Below, piece after piece: positions 1,684-58,318 of a stretch of 64,000 nucleotides of DNA. The stretch is taken from the NCBI RefSeq assembly GCF_013315695.1, contig NZ_CP054353.1; one strand, given 5' to 3'. The DNA is from Escherichia coli (lineage in GTDB: Bacteria > Pseudomonadota > Gammaproteobacteria > Enterobacterales > Enterobacteriaceae). The stretch's first letter is position 1, and each line of letters opens with the position of its first letter. The notes under the pieces were generated by a model. The model made no database searches. It was given only the letters and a program-made list of their open reading frames with translations, and had not been told where the DNA came from. The position numbers and the translations under genes were made by a program.

Positions 1684-4128
1684 TTACACCTTTTCAACCT
1701 GAACAAGGTTTGTATGTGACGGATTCCCCTTAGCGAGAGGAGACGGACGTTGAGTGGTCAGTACGTTGATACAACCGCCCTTATCGACACGTTTTGTATC
1801 CGGGTCATACCAGGCACCTTCACCCAGTGCGACCACACCCGGCATCATTCGTGGCGTCACTTTCGCCTCAATATGAACCTCACCACGATCGTTAAAAATC
1901 CTGACTTTATCGCCGTTGTTGATACCGCGTTTTTGCGCATCAAGCGGGTTGATCCACATTTCCTGACGGCAAGCTGCTTTCAGCACATCAACGTTGCCGT
2001 AAGTTGAGTGAACGCGAGATTTATAGTGGAAACCCGTAAGCTGCAGCGGATACTGTTTGTTCAGCGGATCCTGATAACTTTCAAAGCCCGGCGTGTAGAT
2101 CGGCAGTGGATCGATCACATCACCTTCTGGCAATTCCCAGGTCGCGGCAATGTCAGCCAGCGCCTGCGAATAAATCTCAATTTTCCCCGATGGCGTGGTC
2201 AGTGGATTTGCCTGCGGATCTTCACGGAAAGCTTTATAAGCAACGTGATGCCCTTGTGGGTCGCGCTTTTTAAAGATCCCCTGCTTACGGAACTCTTCAA
2301 ACGTTGGCAGTTCAGGAATCGCTTCCCGCGACTGGGCATACAGATGCCGCATCCACTCTTCCTGGGTACGGCCCTCAGTAAACTGTTGCTCAACGCCAAG
2401 ACGTTTTGCCAGTTCGCTGGTCATTTCATAGATGGTCTTACATTCAAAGCGTGGTTTAATCACCTGATCGTTGAAAATCACGTAAGACATATTCCCGCAG
2501 GATGCATCCAGCGCAAAGTCCATCTGTTCGGAAGCGGTGCAGTCAGGCAGCAGGATGTCAGCGTATTTCGCCGATGAGGTCATGTGGCAGTCGATAACCA
2601 CAATCAGCTCGCACTTCTTATCATCCTGAAGGATTTCATGGGTACGGTTGATTTCAGAATGCTGATTAATCAGGCAGTTACCGGCATAGTTCCAGATCAT
2701 TTTGATCGGCACATCCAGCTTATCTTTCCCGCGCACACCATCACGCAGCGCTGTCATTTCCGGGCCACGTTCAATGGCATCGGTCCACATAAACATCGAA
2801 ATGCTGGTCTGGATCGGGTTTTCGAGGGTCGGCATACGGACAAACGGTAAGCTGTATGAACCTTCACGCGCGCCGCTGTTGCCTCCGTTAATACCAACGT
2901 TACCGGTCAGAATCGCCAGCATCGAGATAGCACGGGTTGCGATTTCACCGTTAGCGTGACGCTGCGGGCCCCATCCCTGGCTGATAAACGCCGGTTTGGT
3001 ACTACCGATTTCACGAGCCAATTTGATGATTTTGTCTGCCGGAACACCAGTGATTTGCGAGGCCCATTCCGGCGTTTTAGCCACGCCATCTGGCCCTTCA
3101 CCCAGAATATAAGCTTTATAGTGACCATTTTTCGGCGCACTGGCTGGCAGTGTTTTCTCGTCGTAGCCAACGCAATATTTATCGAGGAATGCCTGATCCA
3201 CCAGGTTTTCGGTGATCATGACATACGCCAGACCGTTAACCAGTGCGGCATCTGTTCCCGGACGAATAGGGATCCACTCATCTTCGCGCCCGGCACCGGT
3301 GTCGGTATAGCGCGGATCGATGATGATCATGCGAGCATTAGATTTCTGGCGCGCCTGTTCAAGATAGTAAGTCACCCCACCGCCACTCATTCGCGTTTCG
3401 CCAGGGTTATTACCAAACAGCACTACCAGTTTACTGTTTTCGATATCCGACGGGCTGTTACCATCTGCCCAGCCGCCGTAGGTATAGTTCAAACCTTCCG
3501 CAATTTGCGCGGAAGAGTAGTCACCGTAATGGTTCAGATAACCGCCGCAGCAGTTCATCAGGCGAGCGACCAGGGTATTTCCCGGCGGCCAGGAGCGGGT
3601 CATGGTGCCGCCCAGCGTACCGGTACCATAGTTCAGATAGATAGACTCGTTGCCGTACTCTTTGATCAGGCGCTGCATATTGGTCGCGATGATGTCGTAG
3701 GCTTCTTCCCAGCTAATGCGCTCGAATTTGCCTTCACCGCGCGCCCCGACTCGTTTCATCGGATATTTCAGGCGGTCCGGATTGTAGACACGGCGACGCA
3801 TGGAACGCCCACGCAGACAGGCGCGCACCTGGTGCAGGCCGTCATAGTTGTCATCGCCGGTATTATCCGTTTCAACATATTTAATTTCACCGTCCACAAC
3901 GTGCATACGTAGCGGGCAGCGGCTACCACAGTTAACTGTACAGGCGCTCCAGATTACCTTTTCGTCTGACTTTGCCGGAAGGGCACTATCAACAGCGTGC
4001 GCAATCCGACTAAAAGGTAATGTTAATGCGCTGCTGGCCATTGCCAGGCCGCCGATCGCTGTCGTTTTTACCAAACCACGGCGACTCACCTCAGCAGCCA
4101 ATACCGCATCAGGGATTTTCGTTTTCAT
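1684..4128 (-). CDS. dmsA: DMSO reductase molybdopterin catalytic subunit with Tat signal
   Basis: 814 aa. N-terminal twin-arginine leader (SRRGLVKTTAIGGLAMASSALTLPFSRIAHA) and a molybdopterin oxidoreductase fold. Confidence 0.97.
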   Translation of the reverse strand: MKTKIPDAVLAAEVSRRGLVKTTAIGGLAMASSALTLPFSRIAHAVDSALPAKSDEKVIWSACTVNCGSRCPLRMHVVDGEIKYVETDNTGDDNYDGLHQVRACLRGRSMRRRVYNPDRLKYPMKRVGARGEGKFERISWEEAYDIIATNMQRLIKEYGNESIYLNYGTGTLGGTMTRSWPPGNTLVARLMNCCGGYLNHYGDYSSAQIAEGLNYTYGGWADGNSPSDIENSKLVVLFGNNPGETRMSGGGVTYYLEQARQKSNARMIIIDPRYTDTGAGREDEWIPIRPGTDAALVNGLAYVMITENLVDQAFLDKYCVGYDEKTLPASAPKNGHYKAYILGEGPDGVAKTPEWASQITGVPADKIIKLAREIGSTKPAFISQGWGPQRHANGEIATRAISMLAILTGNVGINGGNSGAREGSYSLPFVRMPTLENPIQTSISMFMWTDAIERGPEMTALRDGVRGKDKLDVPIKMIWNYAGNCLINQHSEINRTHEILQDDKKCELIVVIDCHMTSSAKYADILLPDCTASEQMDFALDASCGNMSYVIFNDQVIKPRFECKTIYEMTSELAKRLGVEQQFTEGRTQEEWMRHLYAQSREAIPELPTFEEFRKQGIFKKRDPQGHHVAYKAFREDPQANPLTTPSGKIEIYSQALADIAATWELPEGDVIDPLPIYTPGFESYQDPLNKQYPLQLTGFHYKSRVHSTYGNVDVLKAACRQEMWINPLDAQKRGINNGDKVRIFNDRGEVHIEAKVTPRMMPGVVALGEGAWYDPDTKRVDKGGCINVLTTQRPSPLAKGNPSHTNLVQVEKV

Positions 4129-4298
4129 AATGGCTCACTCAAGCTTGCTCACGATTGATTCCAGTAACAAACCGTATTGTGTAATTATTTCTATAGCAGG
4201 TCGCTATATAGGATTGTATATATCGAATAATTTGAAAATCAAAGAGATAGGTAGATTTTCACTCGAAAGTAGTATTACGTGTAAGTGAGGAGTAATTA

Positions 4299-4312
4299 TT
4301 GTTCGGTATCAA
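4299..4312. promoter_or_regulatory. FNR box of the dmsA promoter
   Basis: The minus strand reads TTGATaccgAACAA (TTGAT-N4-ATCAA consensus). It is centred ~177 nt upstream of the dmsA ATG, consistent with the FNR-activated dmsA promoter. Confidence 0.6.
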
Positions 4313-4322
4313 AGGGAGACAA

Positions 4323-4338
4323 AAAAAGCGCCCGCAGG
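4323..4338. repeat. attL core (aaaaagcgcccgcagg)
   Basis: The identical 16-mer is found at 43150-43165. The right copy retains the full serS terminator hairpin. Confidence 0.75.
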
Positions 4339-4427
4339 AGATTTAACACACCTTACTCCCCTTGATGATTTACTTATTTTTCAATGACTAAATCAAAACA
4401 AGGGGAGCAAATTAACGCAAATTACAA

Positions 4428-5435
4428 CTAGTCAATGGACAGTTTATGGACACTATCAGCCAGCGGATTAAAGCTAATCGCATCCTGTAAAAAGTCCGGT
4501 GAAAAATGCGCATACGTCATCGTTTGTTGAATCGTGGCGTGCCCAAGGATTCGCTGTAACGTAACGATATTTCCGCCGTTCATCATGAAATGCGTGGCGA
4601 ACGTGTGACGCATAACGTGAGTCGCCTGACCTTTGGGTAAATCCGGTTTCACCTCCTGAAGGATATCCCGAAAACGGATGTAATCAGCCTGGTACAATAG
4701 CCCGGTTTTTCGGGTTTTTATCAACGAAAGCACCGTATCAGAAACAGGAACCGCGCGGGATTTTCCATTCTTTGTGTTAAAGAACATTACGCGGTTACCA
4801 ACGATATGCTCACCACGTAAGCCAGCTGCTTCCCCCCACCTTGCGCCAGTGGAAAGACACAGAACAGCAACACGACGCGCATCCCCCTCGAGTCGTTCAA
4901 GCAGCCGATCAATCTCATCATCTGAAAGAAAGGCCATTTCTGTATTCCTGACCTTGAGCTTACGTATTCCACGCACCGGGTTTTCGTTATGGAAAACCTC
5001 CGCATCAATCAACGCAGTAAACATTGCAGACAAGGCGCACAAATCACGATTAACACTGGAGGGCATTAATCCGGCCTGTAATTTGTCTGAACGATACCCG
5101 AGCATAAACTTTCGCGTCATCTCACTGGCGCGGGGGTCCCTCATCTCACGGTTTATTTTTTCCAGCCTGACCCTGTAAGTATCCCCGTAAGGCTGATTCC
5201 GGCCATCAAGCACCCACCAGGCATCTATCAGTTCGGATAACCGACGCTGATCAGCTGGCTTGGCCTGCCACGGTTTATCGTGGAAATTCTGCAAAACATA
5301 CCTTTCAAACTCCTGTGCCTTTGACTTCAGGGTAAAAATCTTACGGATCCGCTTTCCTTCCGTCCCTTGCGGTCTTACATCAACCTTATAACGCCCGTCT
5401 TTGAGTTGCTTAATCGACATGATTAGCCCCTCCAA
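4428..5435 (-). CDS. int: Tyrosine integrase, P2/186 Int family
   Basis: 335 aa. The C-terminal catalytic region HVMRHTFATHFMMNGGNIVTLQRILGHATIQQTMTYAH matches the P2/186 Int signature (R..HxxR..Y). Confidence 0.93.
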   Translation of the reverse strand: MEGLIMSIKQLKDGRYKVDVRPQGTEGKRIRKIFTLKSKAQEFERYVLQNFHDKPWQAKPADQRRLSELIDAWWVLDGRNQPYGDTYRVRLEKINREMRDPRASEMTRKFMLGYRSDKLQAGLMPSSVNRDLCALSAMFTALIDAEVFHNENPVRGIRKLKVRNTEMAFLSDDEIDRLLERLEGDARRVAVLCLSTGARWGEAAGLRGEHIVGNRVMFFNTKNGKSRAVPVSDTVLSLIKTRKTGLLYQADYIRFRDILQEVKPDLPKGQATHVMRHTFATHFMMNGGNIVTLQRILGHATIQQTMTYAHFSPDFLQDAISFNPLADSVHKLSID

Positions 5436-5489: not shown

Positions 5490-5831
5490 TTAGCCAGCAT
5501 TGCGACGAGATCGGGGTGATTTTTGGGTAATGCCGATTGAAACCTGATCGCCCTCCGACTGAATGGAGCCATCAAGAGAGAGAGCCGGAGCTATCTGACC
5601 GGCAGCAGGCATTGTCTTATCTTTTATTAGCCACATCATGTATTTTTCAAACCGATCAACTTGGAGAACCATCTCAACAATTTTGGCTCTGGCGCTTTTT
5701 TGCCCTGATTCATAGTTCCTTATGGCAGCTAAAGACAACCCCGTAATATCCGCAAATTCCTTTTGCGTTAGCCCTTCAGCCTTGCGTATTTGACGTAGCT
5801 TTTTTGCATAGTCTATTGACAAGATAACCAT
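5490..5831 (-). CDS. CI-type immunity repressor (XRE-family HTH)
   Basis: 113 aa with HTH LTQKEFADITGLSLAAIRNYESG. Located between int and the divergent early operon. Confidence 0.8.
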   Translation of the reverse strand: MVILSIDYAKKLRQIRKAEGLTQKEFADITGLSLAAIRNYESGQKSARAKIVEMVLQVDRFEKYMMWLIKDKTMPAAGQIAPALSLDGSIQSEGDQVSIGITQKSPRSRRNAG

Positions 5832-5935: not shown

Positions 5936-6460
5936 ATGCGGAAGTCAATTGCCGATAAAGAGTTATCTGACACACAAGCCCTTCAGGAAAACGACAGCAT
6001 CACCGAATCCGTTGGCGCGGCAAACGACGATGAACACCAAGAGGAAAAGAAAAAACGCACCTACAAAAAAGGGGCAACCTTGCGACTAGATGGCCCGGTA
6101 GCCGGACTTTGCTCACTTGAAAAAGGGGCAGCCTATATCGGGTTGACAAAAGCTGCATTGCGCGTGGCGCTTCAGCGAAATCAGATGCCTGGACACAAGA
6201 CCCGTTCAAACCCTGAAGATGAAAATTCGGATGGCGTGTGGTGGTTTAACGCCAGAGAGTGGGACAAGCTGGCTGACGAACTACCAGAATGCGAGCCGCC
6301 AGAATGGCACAACTGGAAAAGCTACTGGACATACGACCGACAGAAAAGAAAGTTTTCCCCGGCAAACAAAGAAGACTGCCAGACCATCAATGGAAAGCGG
6401 GTTTACACAGGAAGAAAGTCAAAACTGGAGCAACACCAATACAGTGGAGGCAACCAGTGA
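5936..6460 (+). CDS. First early-operon protein; possible Cox/Apl-like DNA-binding regulator with an acidic N-terminal extension
   Basis: 174 aa, SD agagga upstream. HTH-like stretch GAAYIGLTKAALRVALQRNQMPG. The function is inferred only from its position. Confidence 0.5.
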   Translation: MRKSIADKELSDTQALQENDSITESVGAANDDEHQEEKKKRTYKKGATLRLDGPVAGLCSLEKGAAYIGLTKAALRVALQRNQMPGHKTRSNPEDENSDGVWWFNAREWDKLADELPECEPPEWHNWKSYWTYDRQKRKFSPANKEDCQTINGKRVYTGRKSKLEQHQYSGGNQ

Positions 6461-7416: not shown

Positions 7417-7761
7417 ATGAAGAAACCGGGAAATTTTTCACAGCAGAATTTTCGAACAAGTGCCGAACGCCACGTTGCACGCCAGCACTTCCGCAAAAAT
7501 AGTGCGACCACAACCACTGAAATCCATGCCACACCAGACGGTCACCCGGTAAAACAAACCGGCAAGCACACCTGGACGATTGGCGACACTGGCATCGTTA
7601 TTCACAAAAGTTTTCGCAGCCCTGTTACTGGCAGATTTAATTTCACCCTGACTCGCGGGGATGATTACTTCGGACAGGACTTCACATTTTTTGAAGCCTT
7701 AAGAACGGCAGACAGATTAATCAGCGGCCTGCGTTTTCAATATCCGGGAAGCAAGCACTGA
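7417..7761 (+). CDS. Hypothetical early protein (114 aa)
   Basis: Internal ATG (MKKPGNF...) with an aggga SD 7 nt upstream, within ORF 7360..7761. Confidence 0.5.
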   Translation: MKKPGNFSQQNFRTSAERHVARQHFRKNSATTTTEIHATPDGHPVKQTGKHTWTIGDTGIVIHKSFRSPVTGRFNFTLTRGDDYFGQDFTFFEALRTADRLISGLRFQYPGSKH

Positions 7762-7779
7762 TAAATAAAGGATTCAGCC

Positions 7780-8022
7780 ATGATCGAAGCCTACAAAATA
7801 CTTATCAATAACGCGTTGCAACGTTATCACTTTGAACTCGCAAACCGGGGCGTAACTAAGGATGAAAGCCTTCGTAACTCACTGCGCGGCGCAATTATGG
7901 GGCTATACAACTGCGCACTGGGCAGCGATGACCGTGAAGCGCTGGAAGAATTAAAGTCGATTATGACAGAACTGTTTGAAGGTGAAATTGTTGAGCCTTA
8001 CTTCACAGGGGTAGCCGCATGA
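7780..8022 (+). CDS. Hypothetical early protein (80 aa)
   Basis: Clean ORF with SD aaggattcagcc-ATG. Confidence 0.6.
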   Translation: MIEAYKILINNALQRYHFELANRGVTKDESLRNSLRGAIMGLYNCALGSDDREALEELKSIMTELFEGEIVEPYFTGVAA

Positions 8023-8156: not shown

Positions 8157-8252
8157 ATGAAGAATGTAAAAGCAATACTCACCATCGCCACTGTATGGGT
8201 GATATTTCAGGTGAGTGCGCTTATCTGGTTAGCCCTGAAGATCTGGGAATAA
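8157..8252 (+). CDS. Possible 31-aa hydrophobic peptide
   Basis: MKNVKAILTIATVWVIFQVSALIWLALKIWE. No clear SD. Confidence 0.25.
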   Translation: MKNVKAILTIATVWVIFQVSALIWLALKIWE

Positions 8253-8357
8253 CCTGAAGCCGAAAGCAGGCGCGGAATAACACCAGAAAACACACGAGCA
8301 ATTAATTAAGGCATTCATGCCTTCGGGTTCCCTTTGTCTTTTTTCAGGAGTCAACAA

Positions 8358-8588
8358 ATGAGAACAGCCGAATCACCCGGCAGAAAAATAACCGCCAGAC
8401 CAGCTAACCATCATGCACATATCAGCATTGCCGCAAGAAAAGCCGAGCGTGCGCATATCTGCGAATTGCTGCATGACCTGGTTAACACAGCGAGAGAGAA
8501 GCACACCTCCCCGGAGGAAACCTGTTCATCCATTGAACGACTGATTGCAATACTCGCCAACCCAGACGAACTGAAGGGGTGCGCATAA
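8358..8588 (+). CDS. Hypothetical early protein (76 aa)
   Basis: ATG with SD caggag. Its stop overlaps the next start (TAATG). Confidence 0.55.
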   Translation: MRTAESPGRKITARPANHHAHISIAARKAERAHICELLHDLVNTAREKHTSPEETCSSIERLIAILANPDELKGCA

Positions 8589-9169
8589 TGAACCATCTCA
8601 TGATTGACACCGAAACACTGGGTAACGGACCGGACGCAGCCATATTCACGATTGGGGCGGTGTTTTTCGACCCGTTCACCGGAAAGCTGGGCAAGCAGTT
8701 TGAGAAATTCATCGACCCGGTGGATTCAGAACGCAACGGCGGAACCGTCAATGCAGCCACCGCTGTATGGTGGGCCGGACAATCCGTGGAAGCCAGAGCC
8801 TGCCTGCGCAACGCAGATGGAACAGAGCTGGCAGCAGTGACCGAATTTCTGGCGTTCATTTCACGCAATATGCATGACGAAAGCCCGGGCAATTCACTGA
8901 ACATATGGTGTAAGGGCGCATCCTTCGATTTCCCGATCCTGAAATCCGCCATAACACGCACAGCCGGAGAAAAAAGCATCCCCTGGTGCTACTGGAACGA
9001 GCGCTGTATGCGCCCGCTTATCGCCATGGCTGAATCAACTGGATGGAAAATGCCAGGCAGATCAGGCAAAGAGACCATTGCTCACACCGCGCTGGGCGAC
9101 GCCGTTTACCAGGCAAAGGTCGTGTCAGAAATCTGGCAGCGCTTCACAACACCATTCCTGAACATATGA
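8588..9169 (+). CDS. DnaQ/DEDD-like 3'-5' exonuclease
   Basis: MNHLMIDTETLGN... (DxE exo I motif) and a C-terminal HTALGDAVYQA (exo III H-x4-D). Confidence 0.75.
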   Translation: MNHLMIDTETLGNGPDAAIFTIGAVFFDPFTGKLGKQFEKFIDPVDSERNGGTVNAATAVWWAGQSVEARACLRNADGTELAAVTEFLAFISRNMHDESPGNSLNIWCKGASFDFPILKSAITRTAGEKSIPWCYWNERCMRPLIAMAESTGWKMPGRSGKETIAHTALGDAVYQAKVVSEIWQRFTTPFLNI

Positions 9170-10375: not shown

Positions 10376-10726
10376 ATGGCAGTGATTTATATCGCCGGTC
10401 CCATGACCGGATGCAAAGACCACAACAGGACGGCATTTTGCGTGGAGGACCTGAAACTTCGGTGCGCCGGAAACATCGTTCTTAATCCTGCCGTACTGCC
10501 TGACGGATTAAGCCAGCAGCAGTACATGAGTATTTGTATTCCGATGCTCATGTGCGCCGATGCCATTTACTTACTGGATGGATGGGAAGAGTCCGCTGGC
10601 GCACGGGCTGAGTACGCAATGGCGCTCAAACTGAACATGCATGTGTCATTCCCGGAAAACCGGGCAGCCGGCGAAACCGTCGCGCAGCTGCTTCACAAAT
10701 CAAAAGCCGCACAGGCGACTGAGTAA
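10376..10726 (+). CDS. DUF4406-like (nucleoside 2-deoxyribosyltransferase-fold) protein
   Basis: MAVIYIAGPMTG...DAIYLLDGWEESAGARAEYAMA pattern is typical of this phage family. Confidence 0.6.
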   Translation: MAVIYIAGPMTGCKDHNRTAFCVEDLKLRCAGNIVLNPAVLPDGLSQQQYMSICIPMLMCADAIYLLDGWEESAGARAEYAMALKLNMHVSFPENRAAGETVAQLLHKSKAAQATE

Positions 10727-11164
10727 CCGACCGGAGATCGAAACATGATTGCGCGCAGAGCTACCAACCGTCTCACAGGCTTTATTCCAGGCAAGGTTGA
10801 TCATGCACTCCATCACGGGGCTGTCACTTTCCTCAACAAAGGAGAGGCGCGCAATCATGCATTCCGGGGTGAGCATGTGGCGCTGGCTAATCAGTCTTTG
10901 ATAGCTAAGCGCCTGCCATTCAGCCTTTTCAGCTCTGATAGAAAGAGAGGAAGCCATGACCTGCCACACCAGAAAGAGCACCACACTGGCGAAAACAAAC
11001 GTTGCGCTGTCGCAAAAAATGAATGCGGCAACAATCGCAAGGAAAGCGCTAATCCTCAGAACCAAGGAAGCGCGACGGTGGAGAAGGCTTGTCATGTGTT
11101 CAAGCCAGTAGCTGTACCACAGGTCAAAAAGAATTTCGTAATCAGAAGGGAGCTTATCACTCAT
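10700..11164 (-). CDS. Reverse-oriented 2-TM membrane protein (154 aa)
   Basis: ATG (MSDKLPSDYEIL...) with a ggggtg SD. Hydrophobic helices ISAFLAIVAAFIF and FVFASVVLFLVWQVMA. Convergent, with a 27-nt overlap on the preceding gene. Confidence 0.55.
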   Translation of the reverse strand: MSDKLPSDYEILFDLWYSYWLEHMTSLLHRRASLVLRISAFLAIVAAFIFCDSATFVFASVVLFLVWQVMASSLSIRAEKAEWQALSYQRLISQRHMLTPECMIARLSFVEESDSPVMECMINLAWNKACETVGSSARNHVSISGRLLSRLCGF

Positions 11165-11348
11165 CAGAAACACCCCGCGTATGCAGACAATCACCAGTTG
11201 CCAGGTGATATTAATTCGCAACATTCTAACCACATCAGCACGCAACACAAAAACCGCTTGCCAGCGCTCGTCGTGTCAGGTTACATTTCCGCTGCACCTC
11301 ATAAAACGGGTGCCGGGTTTCGCAGCCTGCTGACAACCAAAGCGCACA

Positions 11349-11368
11349 ACCGCGCCAGCGGTTTTTTT
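11349..11368 (+). terminator. Terminator-like hairpin plus T7 (copy 2 at 12178-12197)
   Basis: accgc-gcca-gcggt followed by ttttttt. It is nested inside a longer cgcacaa/ttgtgcg stem. Confidence 0.3.
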
Positions 11369-11380
11369 GTGCGTACTGTA

Positions 11381-11409
11381 TTGCCACGTCTTTTTCGCGT
11401 CAGAATTAT
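11381..11409 (+). promoter_or_regulatory. Sigma70-like promoter TTGCCA-17-AATTAT (copy 2 at 12210-12238)
   Basis: 5/6 match at -35, 17-nt spacer, 4/6 match at -10. It fires into the structured element. Confidence 0.35.
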
Positions 11410-11485
11410 GGCGGGGCGTACGGGGCCGACTTCGGTCGGGCCGGGTTCTTTGCTAGCCGGTACTGCGAACCTCGTACGTCTCGCC
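11410..11485 (+). ncRNA. Candidate structured RNA element (three-way junction), copy 1
   Basis: A 13-bp closing stem ggcggggcgtacg/cgtacgtctcgcc (2 G-U pairs) encloses a UUCG-tetraloop hairpin (ggccgac-ttcg-gtcgggcc) and a second hairpin (gggttc...gaacct). No convincing ORF. Confidence 0.3.
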
Positions 11486-11547
11486 ACCCACAGTTTCGCA
11501 GCTCTGGATGGTGAGTTTTCACAACTTACTAGCAAAGAGGCCACACC

Positions 11548-11769
11548 ATGGCAAACCGCAAGCAACAGCGCGCCCGCGCTGAGCGTCTTCACATCCGCAG
11601 CGAAATCAACCGCAGACTTTTCCGCGCAACACGCGTCGCGCAAATCATGCATATCAACATGCTGCATGAGCGCACGCACGCACTATCAAACCGTTACTGC
11701 GCTGCTGTCTTCAGCTATCTCGCCGAAGATCTGGCAGAACTGCAAAGCCTCATCAACCAGCACCGATAA
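11548..11769 (+). CDS. Hypothetical basic helical protein (73 aa), copy 1
   Basis: MANRKQQRARAERLHIRSEINRR..., SD agagg. Confidence 0.6.
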   Translation: MANRKQQRARAERLHIRSEINRRLFRATRVAQIMHINMLHERTHALSNRYCAAVFSYLAEDLAELQSLINQHR

Positions 11770-11837
11770 ACCACATCCGGAAGCTATCCCACACCTGCAC
11801 GCGGGAGGCTTCCGCACGTCTGTTACCGGAGGTTCTC

Positions 11838-12008
11838 ATGAAGAGCGTTAAGGGACTTTCAGATATTCAGGACTTCTTTAACTGGATGTGGGCGGTGGAT
11901 CCCCTGCTGGCTTCCCGCCTGAACAACTGGCACGACTATTACCGCCGCGCCTGTAAACAGGCTGCCCGCAGCGTCACCACATACGGGGCTTTCTCCTTCA
12001 CCGTTGAC
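11838..12008 (+). pseudogene. 5' fragment (57 codons) of the 138-aa gene, truncated at the duplication joint
   Basis: Identical to the start of 12667..13083 up to ...TTYG(A/D)FSFTV, then it runs into the repeated non-coding sequence. Confidence 0.7.
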
Positions 12009-12238
12009 TATGCAGACAATCACCAGTTGCCAGGTGATATTAATTCGCAACATTCTAACCACATCAGCACGCAACACAAAAACCGCTTGCCAGCGCTCGT
12101 CGTGTCGGGTTACATTTCCGCTGCACCTCATAAAACGGGTGCCGGGTTTCGCAGCCTGCCGACTAGCAAAGCGCACAACCGCGCCAGCGGTTTTTTTGTG
12201 CGTACTGTATTGCCACGTCTTTTTCGCGTCAGAATTAT

Positions 12239-12314
12239 GGCGGGGCGTACGGGGCCGACTTCGGTCGGGCCGGGTTCTTTGCTAGCCGGTACTGCGAACC
12301 TCGTACGTCTCGCC
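12239..12314 (+). ncRNA. Candidate structured RNA element, copy 2
   Basis: Identical to 11410-11485 (offset 829). Confidence 0.3.
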
Positions 12315-12376
12315 ACCCACAGTTTCGCAGCTCTGGATGGTGAGTTTTCACAACTTACTAGCAAAGAGGCCACACC

Positions 12377-12598
12377 ATGGCAAACCGCAAGCAACAGCGC
12401 GCCCGCGCTGAGCGTCTTCACATCCGCAGCGAAATCAACCGCAGACTTTTCCGCGCAACACGCGTCGCGCAAATCATGCATATCAACATGCTGCATGAGC
12501 GCACGCACGCACTATCAAACCGTTACTGCGCTGCTGTCTTCAGCTATCTCGCCGAAGATCTGGCAGAACTGCAAAGCCTCATCAACCAGCACCGATAA
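12377..12598 (+). CDS. Hypothetical basic helical protein (73 aa), copy 2
   Basis: Identical to 11548..11769. Confidence 0.6.
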   Translation: MANRKQQRARAERLHIRSEINRRLFRATRVAQIMHINMLHERTHALSNRYCAAVFSYLAEDLAELQSLINQHR

Positions 12599-12666
12599 AC
12601 CACATCCGGAAGCTATCCCACACCTGCACGCGGGAGGCTTCCGCACGTCTGTTACCGGAGGTTCTC

Positions 12667-13083
12667 ATGAAGAGCGTTAAGGGACTTTCAGATATTCAGG
12701 ACTTCTTTAACTGGATGTGGGCGGTGGATCCCCTGCTGGCTTCCCGCCTGAACAACTGGCACGACTATTACCGCCGCGCCTGTAAACAGGCTGCCCGCAG
12801 CGTCACCACATACGGGGATTTCTCCTTCACCGTGGACGGTCGTTACCGCGTGGACGTGAAAGGTGATGGTGATGGACTGGGTTTATTTCACATCAACGGC
12901 ACCGACAGTACCGCCATCAGCTGGTCGTCATCAGAGATGGCGCTGGTTCTGGAAATGACAACCCACAGCGTGGCCGTGAAAGGTATATACACCGCAGAAG
13001 GTTTTATCGGCGAATACCAGCGCCTTCTCGTGCTGTACCGCGCGGCGTTTCAGGTGGCAACTGCCGGGGAGTGCGACGCATGA
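12667..13083 (+). CDS. Hypothetical early protein (138 aa), intact copy
   Basis: SD ggaggt. The stop overlaps the gpA start (ATGA). Confidence 0.65.
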   Translation: MKSVKGLSDIQDFFNWMWAVDPLLASRLNNWHDYYRRACKQAARSVTTYGDFSFTVDGRYRVDVKGDGDGLGLFHINGTDSTAISWSSSEMALVLEMTTHSVAVKGIYTAEGFIGEYQRLLVLYRAAFQVATAGECDA

Positions 13084-15593
13084 GCGACCATAACGCACAA
13101 CTGGCGTACCCGTGGAACGCCCCGCTACCGGTTATCGATCCTGAAACGTTCGGCAGAGCACAGCCAACCGCATTACGCCAGGCCATTCAGAGCTACATCA
13201 ACGAGGACATTCGCATTGATGCCAGACTGGATGAAGAAACCGTCGCCTTTCTGACAACCACAGACGAAGGGAAGCGAATTAATTCGCACCTTCACCACAA
13301 CGAAGAGCGTCGGATCAGACTGGAAAAACTGGCGCGGCACAAACGCGAGAATCCGCCCACGGTGGTATCGGAAGCCATGGCAGAACTTCGCGCCCTGCCC
13401 TCGTTTCTTGGCAACGCGCTCATTCGTGATCTGGCGCGTTTAAACCGCAAACAGCAAAGCGCCCGCCATGAAGGCGTGAAAAACAACAATACACACGTGG
13501 CTGATAACTTTGTTCGCCGTGGACTGCGCACACGCCTGAAACGCATCGAACAGGTGAATGAATGCTTCGCCACGACGGCATTCAAAGCCACCGCAGCACG
13601 CCATCGCCTTGATGAATTACTCATGCTGCCACAACTCAACCGTGATCAAATTCAGCGCCTTGCCACACTAACGGCGGCGGCATTTTCCACCGAACTGGAA
13701 CGCATATGTGATGAAGTTACTGAGCGGACAGGAAAAGGCGACGATAACCTGTTTACCTGGTTGCTGACTTACCAGCAGCTGGCGCGCATGGCAATAAAAC
13801 TGGGCGTGAACCCACCATACTGGCCGTCACTCGAGATCAGACGTGACCGCCGCACGGCACCAGACCCTGAACTGGTACCGGGCGCGGTAATGCGTATCAC
13901 CTGCGCCACCTGGTGGAACAACCAGCTGCGCCACCTCGCTGATCTCTGGCGGGAGGAATTACTGCGTGCCGCCGGAAGAGTATCGCGCAAGGCATCCCCC
14001 TACATCAGCCATGAGTCACTCCAGGAATTCCGGGAGAAACGCCAGCGCACCCGTGATTTTCTCAAAAGCTGGGACATTGAAAACGAAGACGGTGAACGCC
14101 TGAGCCTGGAGGACGTGTACTGGTCAGGGCTGGGGAATCCGCGCAACCGCCGCAACGAGATGATGGCCTGCGTCAGAGGGATGGAACAGGTCGCCGAATC
14201 GCGTGGTGACTCCGCGTTCTTCGTGACAGTGACCTGCCCTTCCCGCTTTCACAGCGTAAACGAGGACGGCAGCCTGAACCCGAAATACAACGGTGCCACC
14301 GTGCGCGATGCCAGTGATTATCTGGTTTACGACGTCTTTGCAGCTGCAAGAAAAAAACTCAACAAAGAAGGCCTGAGCTGGTACGGGGTGCGCACCGTTG
14401 AGCCACACCATGACGGCACACCGCACTGGCACATGCTGGTATTCACCGCCCCGGACAATGAAGAACGCATCATTGAAATCATGCGTGACGCAGCAATCAA
14501 ATCAGATCGCGCAGAACTGGGGAATGATATTTCTCCGCGCTTCAAGTGCGAAAAAATCGACCCGGCAAAAGGCACACCGGCAAGCTACATCGCAACCTAT
14601 ATTGGCAAGAACCTGGACGCCAGCACCTTTCACGACAATGACCCGAAAACCGGCAAACCTTACGCCGATAAAGAATCGGGAAAAACCATGGCGGAAACCG
14701 TGGAAAACGCCATTGCCTGGGCGAGTCTCCACCGCATCCGGCAGTTCCAGTTCTTCGGTATCCCGCCCCGCCAGGTATGGCGTGAACTCCGCCGCCTTGC
14801 CGGACAAATGGAGCGTAACCCCGCATCACCGAAGCGCCTGGACCATGACGACATTGACGCCATTCTGGCCGCCGCTGACGTGGGGTGTTTTGCCACCTAC
14901 ATCAACCGTCAGGGCGGCGTGCTCATTCCACGCAACCTGTACCTGATCCGCACCGCATACGAAACCGCAGATGAGGCCAACGACTACGGCGAATTCCCGC
15001 AGCGCATCTACGGAATTTGTGCCCCGTCGCTCGGCGAGCGCTACACCATCTGCACCCATCCGGACGAGTGGAAACTGGTCAGAAAAGAAGCGAAAGCCGA
15101 CAACAGCACGGACGAGGATTTTGACGTTGGGGGCGGCTTCGCCGCACCTTGGACTCGTGGCAATAACTGTCGCCATGATGAAAAAACAGACACCGAAGAG
15201 GGTAAAAACCCACCACCGGAAACCAGGAAAGAACAAAAACTGGTCGTCCCGGAAGGTGATTTGGGCGAGTGGTTAAGGTCACTGACCCCCACAGAGCGAA
15301 AACAACTCACCAGGCAGCTGAAAGATGCGCCATCTGACACAAAAACCGTGAAAACCGGCGGCCCCACCACGCCCGATGACGTCATACATGTGCGTACCGC
15401 ATTGCCGCTGGCTGACGTCACCACCACCGTGATCAAGTCGGCACTGAGCACGACGGGCGAGGAGCTGCACAGTGGCGCGGCACTTTCCGTACACAGAGGT
15501 GCACGCGTTCGCCTGCCTGACGGGCGGATTGTGCACTGGGATGAGAAATCACGAAGCCTGGTGGCAGCAGATCAACCGGAGGTGAACCCATGA
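13080..15593 (+). CDS. gpA: Rolling-circle replication initiator endonuclease, P2 gpA family
   Basis: Motifs AYPWNAP, VEPHHDGTPHWHMLVF (HUH) and YIATYIGKN (catalytic Tyr pair) as in P2 A. Start MSDHNAQ is coupled to the upstream stop. Confidence 0.93.
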   Translation: MSDHNAQLAYPWNAPLPVIDPETFGRAQPTALRQAIQSYINEDIRIDARLDEETVAFLTTTDEGKRINSHLHHNEERRIRLEKLARHKRENPPTVVSEAMAELRALPSFLGNALIRDLARLNRKQQSARHEGVKNNNTHVADNFVRRGLRTRLKRIEQVNECFATTAFKATAARHRLDELLMLPQLNRDQIQRLATLTAAAFSTELERICDEVTERTGKGDDNLFTWLLTYQQLARMAIKLGVNPPYWPSLEIRRDRRTAPDPELVPGAVMRITCATWWNNQLRHLADLWREELLRAAGRVSRKASPYISHESLQEFREKRQRTRDFLKSWDIENEDGERLSLEDVYWSGLGNPRNRRNEMMACVRGMEQVAESRGDSAFFVTVTCPSRFHSVNEDGSLNPKYNGATVRDASDYLVYDVFAAARKKLNKEGLSWYGVRTVEPHHDGTPHWHMLVFTAPDNEERIIEIMRDAAIKSDRAELGNDISPRFKCEKIDPAKGTPASYIATYIGKNLDASTFHDNDPKTGKPYADKESGKTMAETVENAIAWASLHRIRQFQFFGIPPRQVWRELRRLAGQMERNPASPKRLDHDDIDAILAAADVGCFATYINRQGGVLIPRNLYLIRTAYETADEANDYGEFPQRIYGICAPSLGERYTICTHPDEWKLVRKEAKADNSTDEDFDVGGGFAAPWTRGNNCRHDEKTDTEEGKNPPPETRKEQKLVVPEGDLGEWLRSLTPTERKQLTRQLKDAPSDTKTVKTGGPTTPDDVIHVRTALPLADVTTTVIKSALSTTGEELHSGAALSVHRGARVRLPDGRIVHWDEKSRSLVAADQPEVNP

Positions 15594-58100: not shown

Positions 58101-58188
58101 GGTGAGGTGTCCGAGTGGCTGAAGGAGCACGCCTGGAAAGTGTGTATACGGCAACGTATCGGGGGTTCGAATCCCCCCCTCACCGCCA
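58101..58188 (+). tRNA. serW: tRNA-Ser (anticodon GGA)
   Basis: GGTGAGGTGTCCGAGTGGCTGAAGGAGCACGCCTGGAAAGTGTG...GGTTCGAATCCCCCCCTCACCGCCA. It has a long variable arm, a T-loop and a CCA end. Confidence 0.97.
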
Positions 58189-58230: not shown

Positions 58231-58318
58231 CATTTTATCTGCCTGTACGGCAGTGAACGGTATAAAAATCGAGTTTTTCTTTCGGTTGGCTTTCTAAGCT
58301 GCCTGTACGGCAGTGAAC
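58231..58318 (-). CRISPR. Orphan type I-F mini-array: 2 repeats, 1 spacer
   Basis: Minus-strand repeat GTTCACTGCCGTACAGGCAGCTTAGAAA is perfect at 58291-58318. The copy at 58231-58258 is degenerate in its last 8 nt. The spacer is 32 nt (58259-58290). No cas genes in the window. Confidence 0.8.

Follow-up and report, generated by a model that had tools for sequence, protein, structure and literature searches.

Why should a prophage carry twice, head to tail, the sequence that precedes its replication gene? The question is raised by a chromosome of Escherichia coli (NCBI RefSeq assembly GCF_013315695.1, contig NZ_CP054353.1), of which we analysed a stretch of 64,000 nucleotides (nt), called here the window. 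In this stretch 829 base pairs (bp) are repeated in tandem upstream of the gene for replication endonuclease A of a prophage related to phage P2. An earlier note, made from the letters of the window alone, had described there some non-coding, structured sequence, a gene for a protein of 73 amino acids (aa) and the first codons of a gene for a protein of 138 aa. In our reading, which we hold with fair assurance, the unit is a complete immunity cassette of the P4 type (IsrK/seqA - C4/CI - seqC), set in tandem in a P2-like (P88/Xuanwuvirus-like) prophage. The cassette type itself is already known; what the window displays is a variant of it.

A duplicated cassette of RNA genes

When the window is compared with itself at an offset of 829 nt, 11180-12008 and 12009-12837 prove to be head-to-tail copies, 99.3% identical, and just outside both repeat ends identity drops to noise. 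The earlier note had counted about six substitutions. There are exactly six (copy 1/copy 2: A/G at 11278, T/C at 11331, A/T at 11335, C/G at 11337, C/A at 11989 and T/G at 12005). A repeat search also recovers the pair with a spacing of 829. Tandem Repeats Finder reported no repeat at this locus, but its maximum period is 500, so that its silence is not counted against a period of 829. The same offset comparison found no microhomology at the joint. A repeat so long and so exact cannot be of chance origin. The anatomy first described holds good: 368 nt precede the 73-aa open reading frame (ORF), 57 codons of the 138-aa ORF end the unit, and copy 1 of the latter gene is truncated, reading ...FSFTV up to the joint and DYADNH beyond it. 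Both the 73-aa gene and the non-coding element are thereby doubled upstream of the replication gene.

The non-coding element, which the earlier note had called structured, is far from anonymous. Family models place in each copy two known RNA genes, isrK and C4, well above the Rfam gathering scores (Table 1), and these matches are what shows their identity. The minimum free energy (MFE) fold of C4 is the family structure (z = -4.8). The transcription start predicted from the putative copy 1 promoter coincides with the 5' end of isrK (~11294), and in P4 a promoter-like TTGCCT/TATAGT stands at the same position, ahead of the P4 isrK hairpin. Conservation among E. coli modules starts at ~11228-11245.

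The protein encoded next is related to epsilon, the derepression protein of P4. Its match to the Pfam family PF25738 ('Derepression protein family') reaches 28.2 bits (gathering score 27, E 1.6e-6), where P4 epsilon itself scores 170 bits. Direct comparison by BLASTP gives 32% identity with P4 epsilon over 50 aa (E 8e-8). Homology, borderline in Pfam, is thus shown clearly by the pairwise alignment of the two sequences. A protein-pattern search of the genome contigs with the 73-aa protein returned two loci only.

Recognition boxes that covary at three sites

In the C4 RNA of the window the cognate boxes are written as a' CUUUGCUAG and b' CUGCGAA. Complementary boxes are found at two other places, in IsrK (b1 and a1) and in the leader of the epsilon-like gene (b2 and a2), where a2 overlaps the ribosome-binding site, AAGAGG lying 7 nt before the ATG at 11548. 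Pairing was followed in an alignment of 31 cassettes, 26 of them distinct: the two of the window, that of phage P88, both copies of E. coli STEC2018-607, copy 1 of E. coli G6/7 (whose copy 2 does not differ from copy 2 of the window and is represented by the latter), 23 IMG/VR loci, a Salmonella locus and a record titled Vagococcus. The last of these (L030, NZ_JBQPOM010000071.1, titled Vagococcus sp. WN89Y) holds an enterobacterial-type cassette, 89% identical to the RNA region of the window; its Gram-positive label is likely to reflect contamination or mislabelling of the assembly.

Among the 26 distinct cassettes, C4 is paired with the downstream boxes in 93.3% of cells, with changes on both sides in 11 of 19 pairs and a covariation of 0.598, against 0.122 in shuffles; controls slid along the sequence are 38-52% paired. 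With the IsrK boxes the figures are 98.3% of cells, 11 of 16 pairs and 0.668 against 0.138, slid controls being 27-48% paired. The cells that depart from Watson-Crick pairing are G-U wobbles, solely in the orientation of the + strand RNA, for instance in 5 of the 26 sequences at one a-box pair in each target set. Predicted duplex energies average about -29 to -30 kcal/mol for cognate pairs and about -17 to -18 for non-cognate ones. As far as aligned sequences can show it, the boxes of IsrK, C4 and the downstream operator obey one base-pairing scheme and co-evolve at all three sites.

Might the boxes be DNA sites, iterons or operators for A, C or Cox, the duplication then doubling the places where a protein binds? 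They are short, repeated and inverted motifs near gene A, and repeats read by one protein would covary too. We nevertheless consider this account highly improbable. Boxes a' and b' sit exactly in the unpaired loop and junction of the 82.8-bit match to the C4 covariance model. Wobbles of a single strand sense fit the + strand RNA, but would be mismatches in DNA. Furthermore, a protein that read the boxes would have to exist in as many variants as there are specificities (13 x 6), while the flanking genes are nearly identical across cassette types, and the homologous boxes of P4 and P1 are known RNA targets (PMC4825925; PMC3632133; PMC8198154).

The repertoire just mentioned, 13 a-types and 6 b-types in 19 combinations, makes the boxes the most changeable part of the cassette: nucleotide diversity is 0.354 inside them and 0.078 elsewhere. 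Three different cassettes were found among single-copy E. coli relatives with nearly the same flanks as the window (0-5 differences in 480 nt on the left, 0 in 463 nt on the right), which argues that boxes are exchanged on a constant backbone. Exchange extends to much more remote relatives. The C4 boxes of the window recur exactly in P2-like phages of IMG/VR (L035-L041), with A proteins only 32-53% identical and epsilon-like proteins 62-80% identical, so that the RNA specificity module moves between distant phage backbones. In the IMG/VR scan, where satellites are poorly represented, this specificity was met in P2-like contexts only and in no P4-like one.

A chimeric first copy

Three of the six differences, as first noticed, are clustered just before a hairpin. 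They lie 11-17 nt ahead of the hairpin and T-run at 11348-11363, that is, within or immediately ahead of the a1 box of IsrK. There copy 2 reads CUAGCAAAG, cognate to the C4 loop, and copy 1 reads CAACCAAAG. Taken with the T at 11331, the latter state is exactly the allele of another locus, L018, whose own C4 loop, CUUUGGUUG, matches it. The exact match marks copy 1 as a chimera, an IsrK of the L018 type followed by a C4 and an operator identical to those of copy 2; on the aligned alleles this chimeric nature is shown, and the clustered substitutions are not random drift. In keeping with this, IsrK copy 2 is fully cognate to the window C4, while IsrK copy 1 retains a cognate b1 together with an a1 carrying 2 mismatches in 9. 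The predicted duplex energies with the window C4 are -20.9 kcal/mol for IsrK-1 and -32.5 for IsrK-2, and IsrK-1 would reach -29.9 with the C4 of L018.

Between the clustered differences and those at the right end, the copies are identical over 11338-11988. This pattern is what one expects of a conversion tract, or of one crossover within the conserved spacer that separates IsrK from C4. The RNA region of copy 2 (12119-12380) recurs without a difference in copy 2 of G6/7 and at the single-copy locus L011. The IsrK-C4 combination of copy 1 is absent from all 1,125 complete E. coli genomes that have the segment, the best match (98.3%) being of the copy 2 type. Elsewhere a mismatch was found only in copy 2 of the tandem IMG/VR locus L012, with an IsrK of the G6/7 copy 1 type and a C4 and operator of the L005 type. 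IsrK boxes match their own C4 in 35 of the 35 single-copy cassettes examined. Tandem loci thus hold 2 chimeras among 9 cassettes, single-copy loci 0 among 35 (Fisher exact ~0.04, in a small, non-independent sample).

The two leaders are also predicted to fold differently. In the read-through leader of copy 2 the IsrK boxes pair in cis with the a'/b' region of C4; in that of copy 1 they do not, and the canonical C4 fold forms. The MFE structures have low probabilities, and this predicted difference is only a lead.

Origin and age of the duplication

The isrK-C4 module is present in 1,277 of 5,426 complete E. coli genomes, nearly always as a single copy, and the other cassettes examined are single copies too (35/35). 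The joint is another matter. A 141-nt probe across it matches at 141 of 141 positions in the complete genomes of E. coli STEC2018-607, G6/7 and G8. A fourth complete genome, G1/2, also has the joint, with a 79-bp deletion in copy 2 that begins 13 nt past it. The exact joint pattern is further found in a 187-kilobase (kb) metagenome contig (OAUP01000013.1) and in one IMG/VR contig that ends 109 nt left of the joint. The G1/2 deletion (L004 ~4082-4100, corresponding to window 12022-12100) takes out the -35 element of the putative promoter ahead of isrK in copy 2; in that strain copy 2 is therefore probably transcribed only by read-through from copy 1.

These carriers bear directly on the fear, voiced in the earlier note, that an assembler had expanded a single cassette into two. 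Near-identical repeats of 829 bp are a classic problem of short reads, and two IMG/VR contigs (L012/L031; L040) end inside or next to the unit. Yet the same joint stands in three finished E. coli chromosomes, in a fourth with its deletion and in the long metagenome contig, and the two copies of STEC2018-607 and of the G strains differ at some 35-40 positions, too many for one collapsed locus. The window copies themselves differ at six positions, those at the right end as in these genomes. For the lineage, finished genomes of independent origin with distinguishable copies exclude the artefact, and for the locus as a whole we give it next to no credence. Head-to-tail copies, a unique novel joint and the recurrence of that joint in independent assemblies are what a genuine tandem duplication displays. 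The viral contig ends in or next to the unit (L040, IMG/VR 2651869785_000020, 7496-7826; L012/L031 at the contig end) deserve a mention of their own: in one of these contigs the 73-aa gene is 100% identical to that of the window. Such ends suggest that assemblies break at the duplication, so that its frequency is probably underestimated in draft data.

How did the duplication arise, and when? The truncated gene has Ala51 (11989 C) in every duplicated locus with a readable end of copy 1, while the full-length 138-aa gene has Asp at residue 51 in all but one locus. An identical joint without homology to guide it, together with the shared Ala51, points to a single origin followed by inheritance, and at the level of sequence we regard this as shown. 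As for age, other carriers hold copies far more different than those of the window. In STEC2018-607 copy 1 is b3/a1 and copy 2 b1/a3 (about 95-97% identical); in G6/7, G8 and G1/2 copy 1 is b2/a4 and copy 2 b1/a1 (about 95%). The metagenome contig (L032) has b2/a4 in both copies. The window has b1/a1 twice, with the foreign IsrK a1 box in copy 1. Heterospecific copies some 5% apart in other carriers imply that the duplication is old relative to the spread of the prophage lineage. The 99.3% identity of the window is therefore a secondary state, reflecting homogenisation. The earlier note had proposed either a recent event or gene conversion: the former is not supported, and the data favour the latter.

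It follows that a recent, neutral tandem duplication, overlaid with point mutations at meaningless positions, is improbable, even if a little less so than the two accounts discarded above. It would explain simply that the copies are 99.3% identical, that the joint lacks homology, as expected of a sporadic illegitimate event, and that the arrangement is rare in E. coli. But the event would have had to join, with no guiding homology, the very pair of nucleotides that is joined in five other sources; Ala51 of copy 1 is common to all duplicated loci; the clustered differences make up the exact a1 box of L018, within highly variable covarying boxes; and other carriers of the joint have copies ~5% apart.

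Was the duplication then selected because it allows two RNA immunity specificities, and so a broader exclusion of related phages and satellites, the window being a derived state with one specificity? This would extend our explanation and not compete with it. Heterospecific pairs are exactly what STEC2018-607 and the G strains carry. Both epsilon-like ORFs are intact wherever both copies can be read (window, STEC2018-607, G6/7, G1/2), and the joint has been kept on backbones that share 95.6-98.7% identity with the window. On the other side, the window and L032 each carry two cassettes of the same specificity, the arrangement is rare, and the reading draws on sequence only. We keep it as a tentative idea, with the odds somewhat against it.

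How the tandem cassette might work

The following scheme would account for these observations. In each unit, its own promoter would make a short IsrK, ended by the intrinsic terminator and bearing b1 and a1. Read-through of this terminator would yield the stable antisense RNA C4, processed from the longer transcript, with a' exposed in its loop and b' in its junction. C4 would then pair with b2 and a2 in the leader of the 73-aa gene and block translation of the epsilon-like protein; by polarity, transcription would fail to extend into the 138-aa gene and the replication gene A. This repression would add to that exerted by the protein repressor C in silencing the prophage. IsrK, which has the same two boxes, may compete for C4 in cis or in trans, as a decoy or activator comparable to that of the Salmonella prophage Gifsy-1, titrating or refolding C4. 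Once made, the epsilon-like protein may inactivate the C repressor of the prophage and lead to induction.

The duplication itself arose once, by illegitimate recombination, as suggested by the lack of homology at the joint, where codon 57 of the 138-aa gene meets a point that lies 16 nt upstream of the divergent gene; it has been inherited since. Later, each copy has swapped its specificity boxes by recombination, leaving some lysogens with two different locks. In copy 1 of the window, IsrK would have kept its foreign a1 while the remainder became like copy 2 by homogenisation, for which gene conversion over ~11338-11988 is the simplest account. The net effect in the window may be a doubled dose of C4 and of the epsilon-like protein, two successive locks before A, and one IsrK that pairs weakly with C4. 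Heterospecific carriers would enjoy two immunity specificities.

Several points weigh against this scheme. The isrK promoter calls are consensus matches, hence putative. Repression of the epsilon-like gene, polarity onto A, processing by ribonuclease P and anti-repressor activity are all carried over from P4, P1 and Gifsy-1. The PF25738 match of the 73-aa protein is barely over its threshold. Homogenisation may have worked by conversion of one copy from the other, or an incoming phage may have supplied the replacement. That this genome has two copies is read from its assembled sequence, not from reads. Finally, the duplication is rare (4 of ~1,277 module-bearing genomes, and 4 of the 24 complete genomes that share the left flank) and could be a neutral passenger.

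If the tandem cassette is the immunity device that we believe it to be, one may speculate further, at less than even odds. P2-like prophages may possess a hypervariable two-box RNA 'barcode' immunity of at least 13 a-types and 6 b-types, freely recombined, in which the tandem is a dual-lock state that holds two specificities and shelters mismatched intermediates. Because each box exists in three places (IsrK, C4 and operator), a switch of specificity needs chimeric steps. Cross-talk of the boxes with P4-like satellites, an RNA warfare between helper and satellite, is a possibility.

The prophage and its other features

The setting is that of a P2-like prophage (Peduoviridae), as deduced from gpA, the C/Cox switch, a tyrosine integrase and the closest phages, which are P88-like Xuanwuvirus; the Cox match lies below threshold (Table 1). 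Downstream, a run of large ORFs is consistent, seen as a run and not gene by gene, with a P2-like late region. The protein repressor C, added to the RNA cassettes, gives a two-part immunity.

Table 1. Features of the tandem cassette and of the surrounding prophage (positions in the window).
Feature	Position	Strand	Evidence and remarks
Repeat copy 1, 829 bp	11180-12008	+	Offset-829 comparison, repeat search
Repeat copy 2, 829 bp	12009-12837	+	Offset-829 comparison, repeat search; runs on into intact 138-aa gene
Putative isrK promoter, copy 1	11258-11287	+	Sigma-70-like, TTGCCA-18-TACATT; consensus scan; ends 7 nt before isrK 5' end (~11294)
Putative isrK promoter, copy 2	12087-12116	+	Consensus scan
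IsrK/seqA-like RNA, copy 1	11294-11368	+	Rfam RF01394, 65.9 bits (gathering score 50); has a 5' hairpin
b1 box, copy 1	11319-11325		TTCGCAG (RNA UUCGCAG)
a1 box, copy 1	11334-11342		CAACCAAAG, non-cognate to window C4
IsrK/seqA-like RNA, copy 2	12123-12197	+	Rfam RF01394, 64.3 bits (gathering score 50)
b1 box, copy 2	12148-12154
a1 box, copy 2	12163-12171		CTAGCAAAG, cognate
IsrK intrinsic terminator, copy 1	11348-11363 plus T7	+	Terminator scan, consensus-type match
IsrK intrinsic terminator, copy 2	12177-12192	+	Terminator scan, consensus-type match
C4/CI-type antisense RNA, copy 1	11404-11491	+	Rfam RF01695, 82.8 bits (gathering score 45), model positions 1-87 of 87
a' box, copy 1	11445-11456		GUUCUUUGCUAG, in 12-nt hairpin loop
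b' box, copy 1	11463-11469		CUGCGAA, in single-stranded junction
C4/CI-type antisense RNA, copy 2	12233-12320	+	Rfam RF01695, 82.8 bits; identical to copy 1
a' box, copy 2	12274-12285
b' box, copy 2	12292-12298
Downstream target (operator) region, copy 1	11495-11540	+	Complementarity and covariation with C4
b2 box, copy 1	11495-11501	+	TTCGCAG (RNA UUCGCAG)
a2 box, copy 1	11529-11540	+	DNA CTAGCAAAGAGG, RNA CUAGCAAAGAGG; includes Shine-Dalgarno AAGAGG of 73-aa gene
Downstream target region, copy 2	12324-12369	+
b2 box, copy 2	12324-12330
a2 box, copy 2	12358-12369
73-aa P4-epsilon-like 'derepression' protein gene, copy 1	11548-11769	+	Pfam PF25738, BLASTP, phrog_3688
73-aa epsilon-like gene, copy 2	12377-12598	+	Identical protein
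Truncated 138-aa gene	11838-12008	+	First 57 codons; Ala51 (11989 C)
Intact 138-aa gene	12667-13083	+	PHROGs, phrog_3237 (family with no assigned function)
Replication endonuclease A (P2 gpA family)	13080-15593	+	Pfam Phage_GPA, E 2e-108; RefSeq annotation in relatives; directly after cassettes
Divergent 154-aa gene	10700-11164	-	phrog_6315; likely ATG 16 nt left of duplication boundary; DUF6239 match weak, sub-threshold
Integrase (tyrosine)	4428-5435	-	Pfam Phage_integrase/Int_N
Prophage protein repressor C (helix-turn-helix)	5490-5831	-	Pfam HTH_3
Cox-like protein	5936-6460	+	Pfam Phage_Cox sub-threshold, 25.3 vs 27.5 bits

Little can be said of the 138-aa protein, which has no match in Pfam, NCBIfam or the Protein Data Bank (PDB), and whose single-sequence AlphaFold model is unusable (mean predicted local distance difference test, pLDDT, 39.8). 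P4 orf151, considered as a relative, turned out to be unrelated. PDB sequence searches with the 73-aa and 138-aa proteins returned chance-level matches only (E ~0.4-1), and none of the four local proteins falls into an NCBIfam family. The divergent 154-aa gene sits between the early operon and the cassette. Its surroundings are uncommon, the left flank being matched in only 24 of 5,426 complete E. coli genomes, as against 1,277 for the isrK-C4 module, and the gene has the look of an insertion of the moron type.

A second promoter-like site, TTGCCA-17-AATTAT, is conserved just ahead of the 5' end of C4 or across it (11381-11409 and 12210-12238, + strand). We did not retain it: its start would fall inside the 5' stem of C4. 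The RNA region is also crossed by long ORFs which, having no family match, we regard as non-genes, on the + strand (10745-11851, 368 aa; 11838-12680, 280 aa) and, over C4, on the minus strand (11299-11679; 11859-12176). The + frame, open for 368 and 280 codons, spans the promoter, isrK, C4 and, out of frame, the 73-aa gene, and is unannotated in relatives; it is probably due to chance and to the antisense of the divergent gene, though unusually long. RefSeq does annotate 'hypothetical protein' or 'ash family protein' ORFs on top of isrK and C4, as in L003 (3360-3728, minus strand), L045 (2100-2468, minus strand) and many E. coli matches. The P4 record (L033) likewise has one, at 8168-8584 on the minus strand. 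The Pfam family PF10554 (Phage_ASH) matches the obsolete P4 'cI protein' ORF, which overlaps the CI/C4 RNA, and seems to have been built at least partly on translations of an RNA gene.

Two observations concern more distant parts of the window. The small RNA STnc130 (126 bits) lies at 4219-4353 (+ strand), ~75 nt beyond the 3' end of the integrase gene, and is presumably at or near the attachment site of the prophage. An orphan remnant of clustered regularly interspaced short palindromic repeats (CRISPR) occupies 58240-58318, with a full repeat at 58291-58318 (Rfam CRISPR-DR4) and a partial copy at 58240-58259, ~31 nt apart, between tRNA-Ser(GGA) (58101-58188) and a minus-strand ORF of 763 aa.

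What the tandem cassette may teach

RNA-based phage immunity, as embodied in P1 c4 and P4 CI, is textbook knowledge drawn from a handful of alleles. Here the same device precedes the replication gene in a family of P2-like prophages so common in E. coli that about one complete genome in four has it. Within a near-identical backbone its two recognition boxes vary most, and they covary at three places; one lineage has duplicated the whole lock, sometimes with two different keys. In the literature that we searched, isrK-C4 before gene A of P2-like phages, the breadth of two-box alleles and the tandem or heterospecific arrangement were not described, an absence that is no proof of novelty. The locus offers a natural and easily engineered system for asking how antisense-RNA specificities diversify while function is preserved, whether stacked cassettes broaden the superinfection immunity of a prophage, and whether the epsilon-like protein triggers induction in P2-like phages. 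A more immediate benefit is a corrected annotation, isrK and C4 RNA genes being now overlaid in RefSeq by 'hypothetical' or 'ash family' ORFs.

Comparison with known systems

A close parallel is the immunity region of P4. Published work treats IsrK as the counterpart of P4 seqA and C4 as that of P4 CI, and uses the term 'IsrK-C4 immunity system' (PMC4825925; PMC3632133). In P4, the Rfam models recover the same pair in the same order on the minus strand, isrK at 8615-8692 and C4 at 8420-8507, with epsilon and the replication gene downstream. The CI loop, CCUGUGAA, and junction, AUUCUCAC, are complementary, as read by eye, to box pairs in isrK/seqA and seqC. As in the window, the second seqC box overlaps the AGGAGG of the first ORF, and ~27 nt separate b2 from a2. 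The differences are nonetheless considerable. The host of the window cassette is no satellite but a full P2-like phage of the helper type, with gpA, C, Cox and integrase. The epsilon-like gene begins 57 nt after C4, with no kil/eta region between; the gene that separates epsilon from the replication gene shows no relationship to P4 orf151; the replication gene encodes an HUH endonuclease (A), not the alpha primase; and the whole cassette is present twice. Of the satellite gene set (alpha primase, sid, delta, psu), no alpha homologue was found in the window locus or in the related loci probed. Because the element is a P2-like phage, the locus would work like the P4 immunity region without being part of a P4-like satellite.

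P1 and P7 owe their heteroimmunity to differences in c4 and in the target boxes. Their immI region (c4 - icd - ant) resembles the window in having a C4-family RNA as a second layer beside a protein repressor, and their c4 alleles parallel the box alleles found among relatives of the window, a repertoire of 13 x 6 that far exceeds the classical pair. In P1, C4 RNA completes the repression of the anti-repressor Ant (PMC8198154). According to what that paper relates of Citron & Schuster 1990, the C4 RNA of P1 and P7 is processed from the leader of the transcript that it controls and blocks translation of the first ORF, hence that of the anti-repressor (PMC8198154). In the window, by contrast, the controlled protein is epsilon-like and the P2-like phage is integrated in the chromosome; no Icd or Ant family match was found among the downstream genes in Pfam, PHROGs or NCBIfam.

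Gifsy-1 illustrates how the short RNA could act. There, IsrK is made from a promoter of its own and ends at a terminator that leaks; read-through gives a translationally silent mRNA, and the short IsrK acts in trans on this mRNA, resulting in synthesis of the anti-repressor and induction of the prophage (PMC4825925). The Gifsy-1 arrangement (isrK - orf45 (STnc1160) - anrP) resembles copy 2 of the window, where the predicted leader pairs the IsrK boxes in cis with the C4 region, and copy 1 does not share this trait. Gifsy-1 differs in being a lambdoid prophage, with AnrP as its anti-repressor, a downstream circuit with a Q-like antiterminator and no tandem duplication described. Phage P88 (Xuanwuvirus) and the single-copy E. 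coli prophages display the very same order, isrK - C4 - 73-aa gene - 138-aa gene - A, and differ from the window in having one cassette where it has two.

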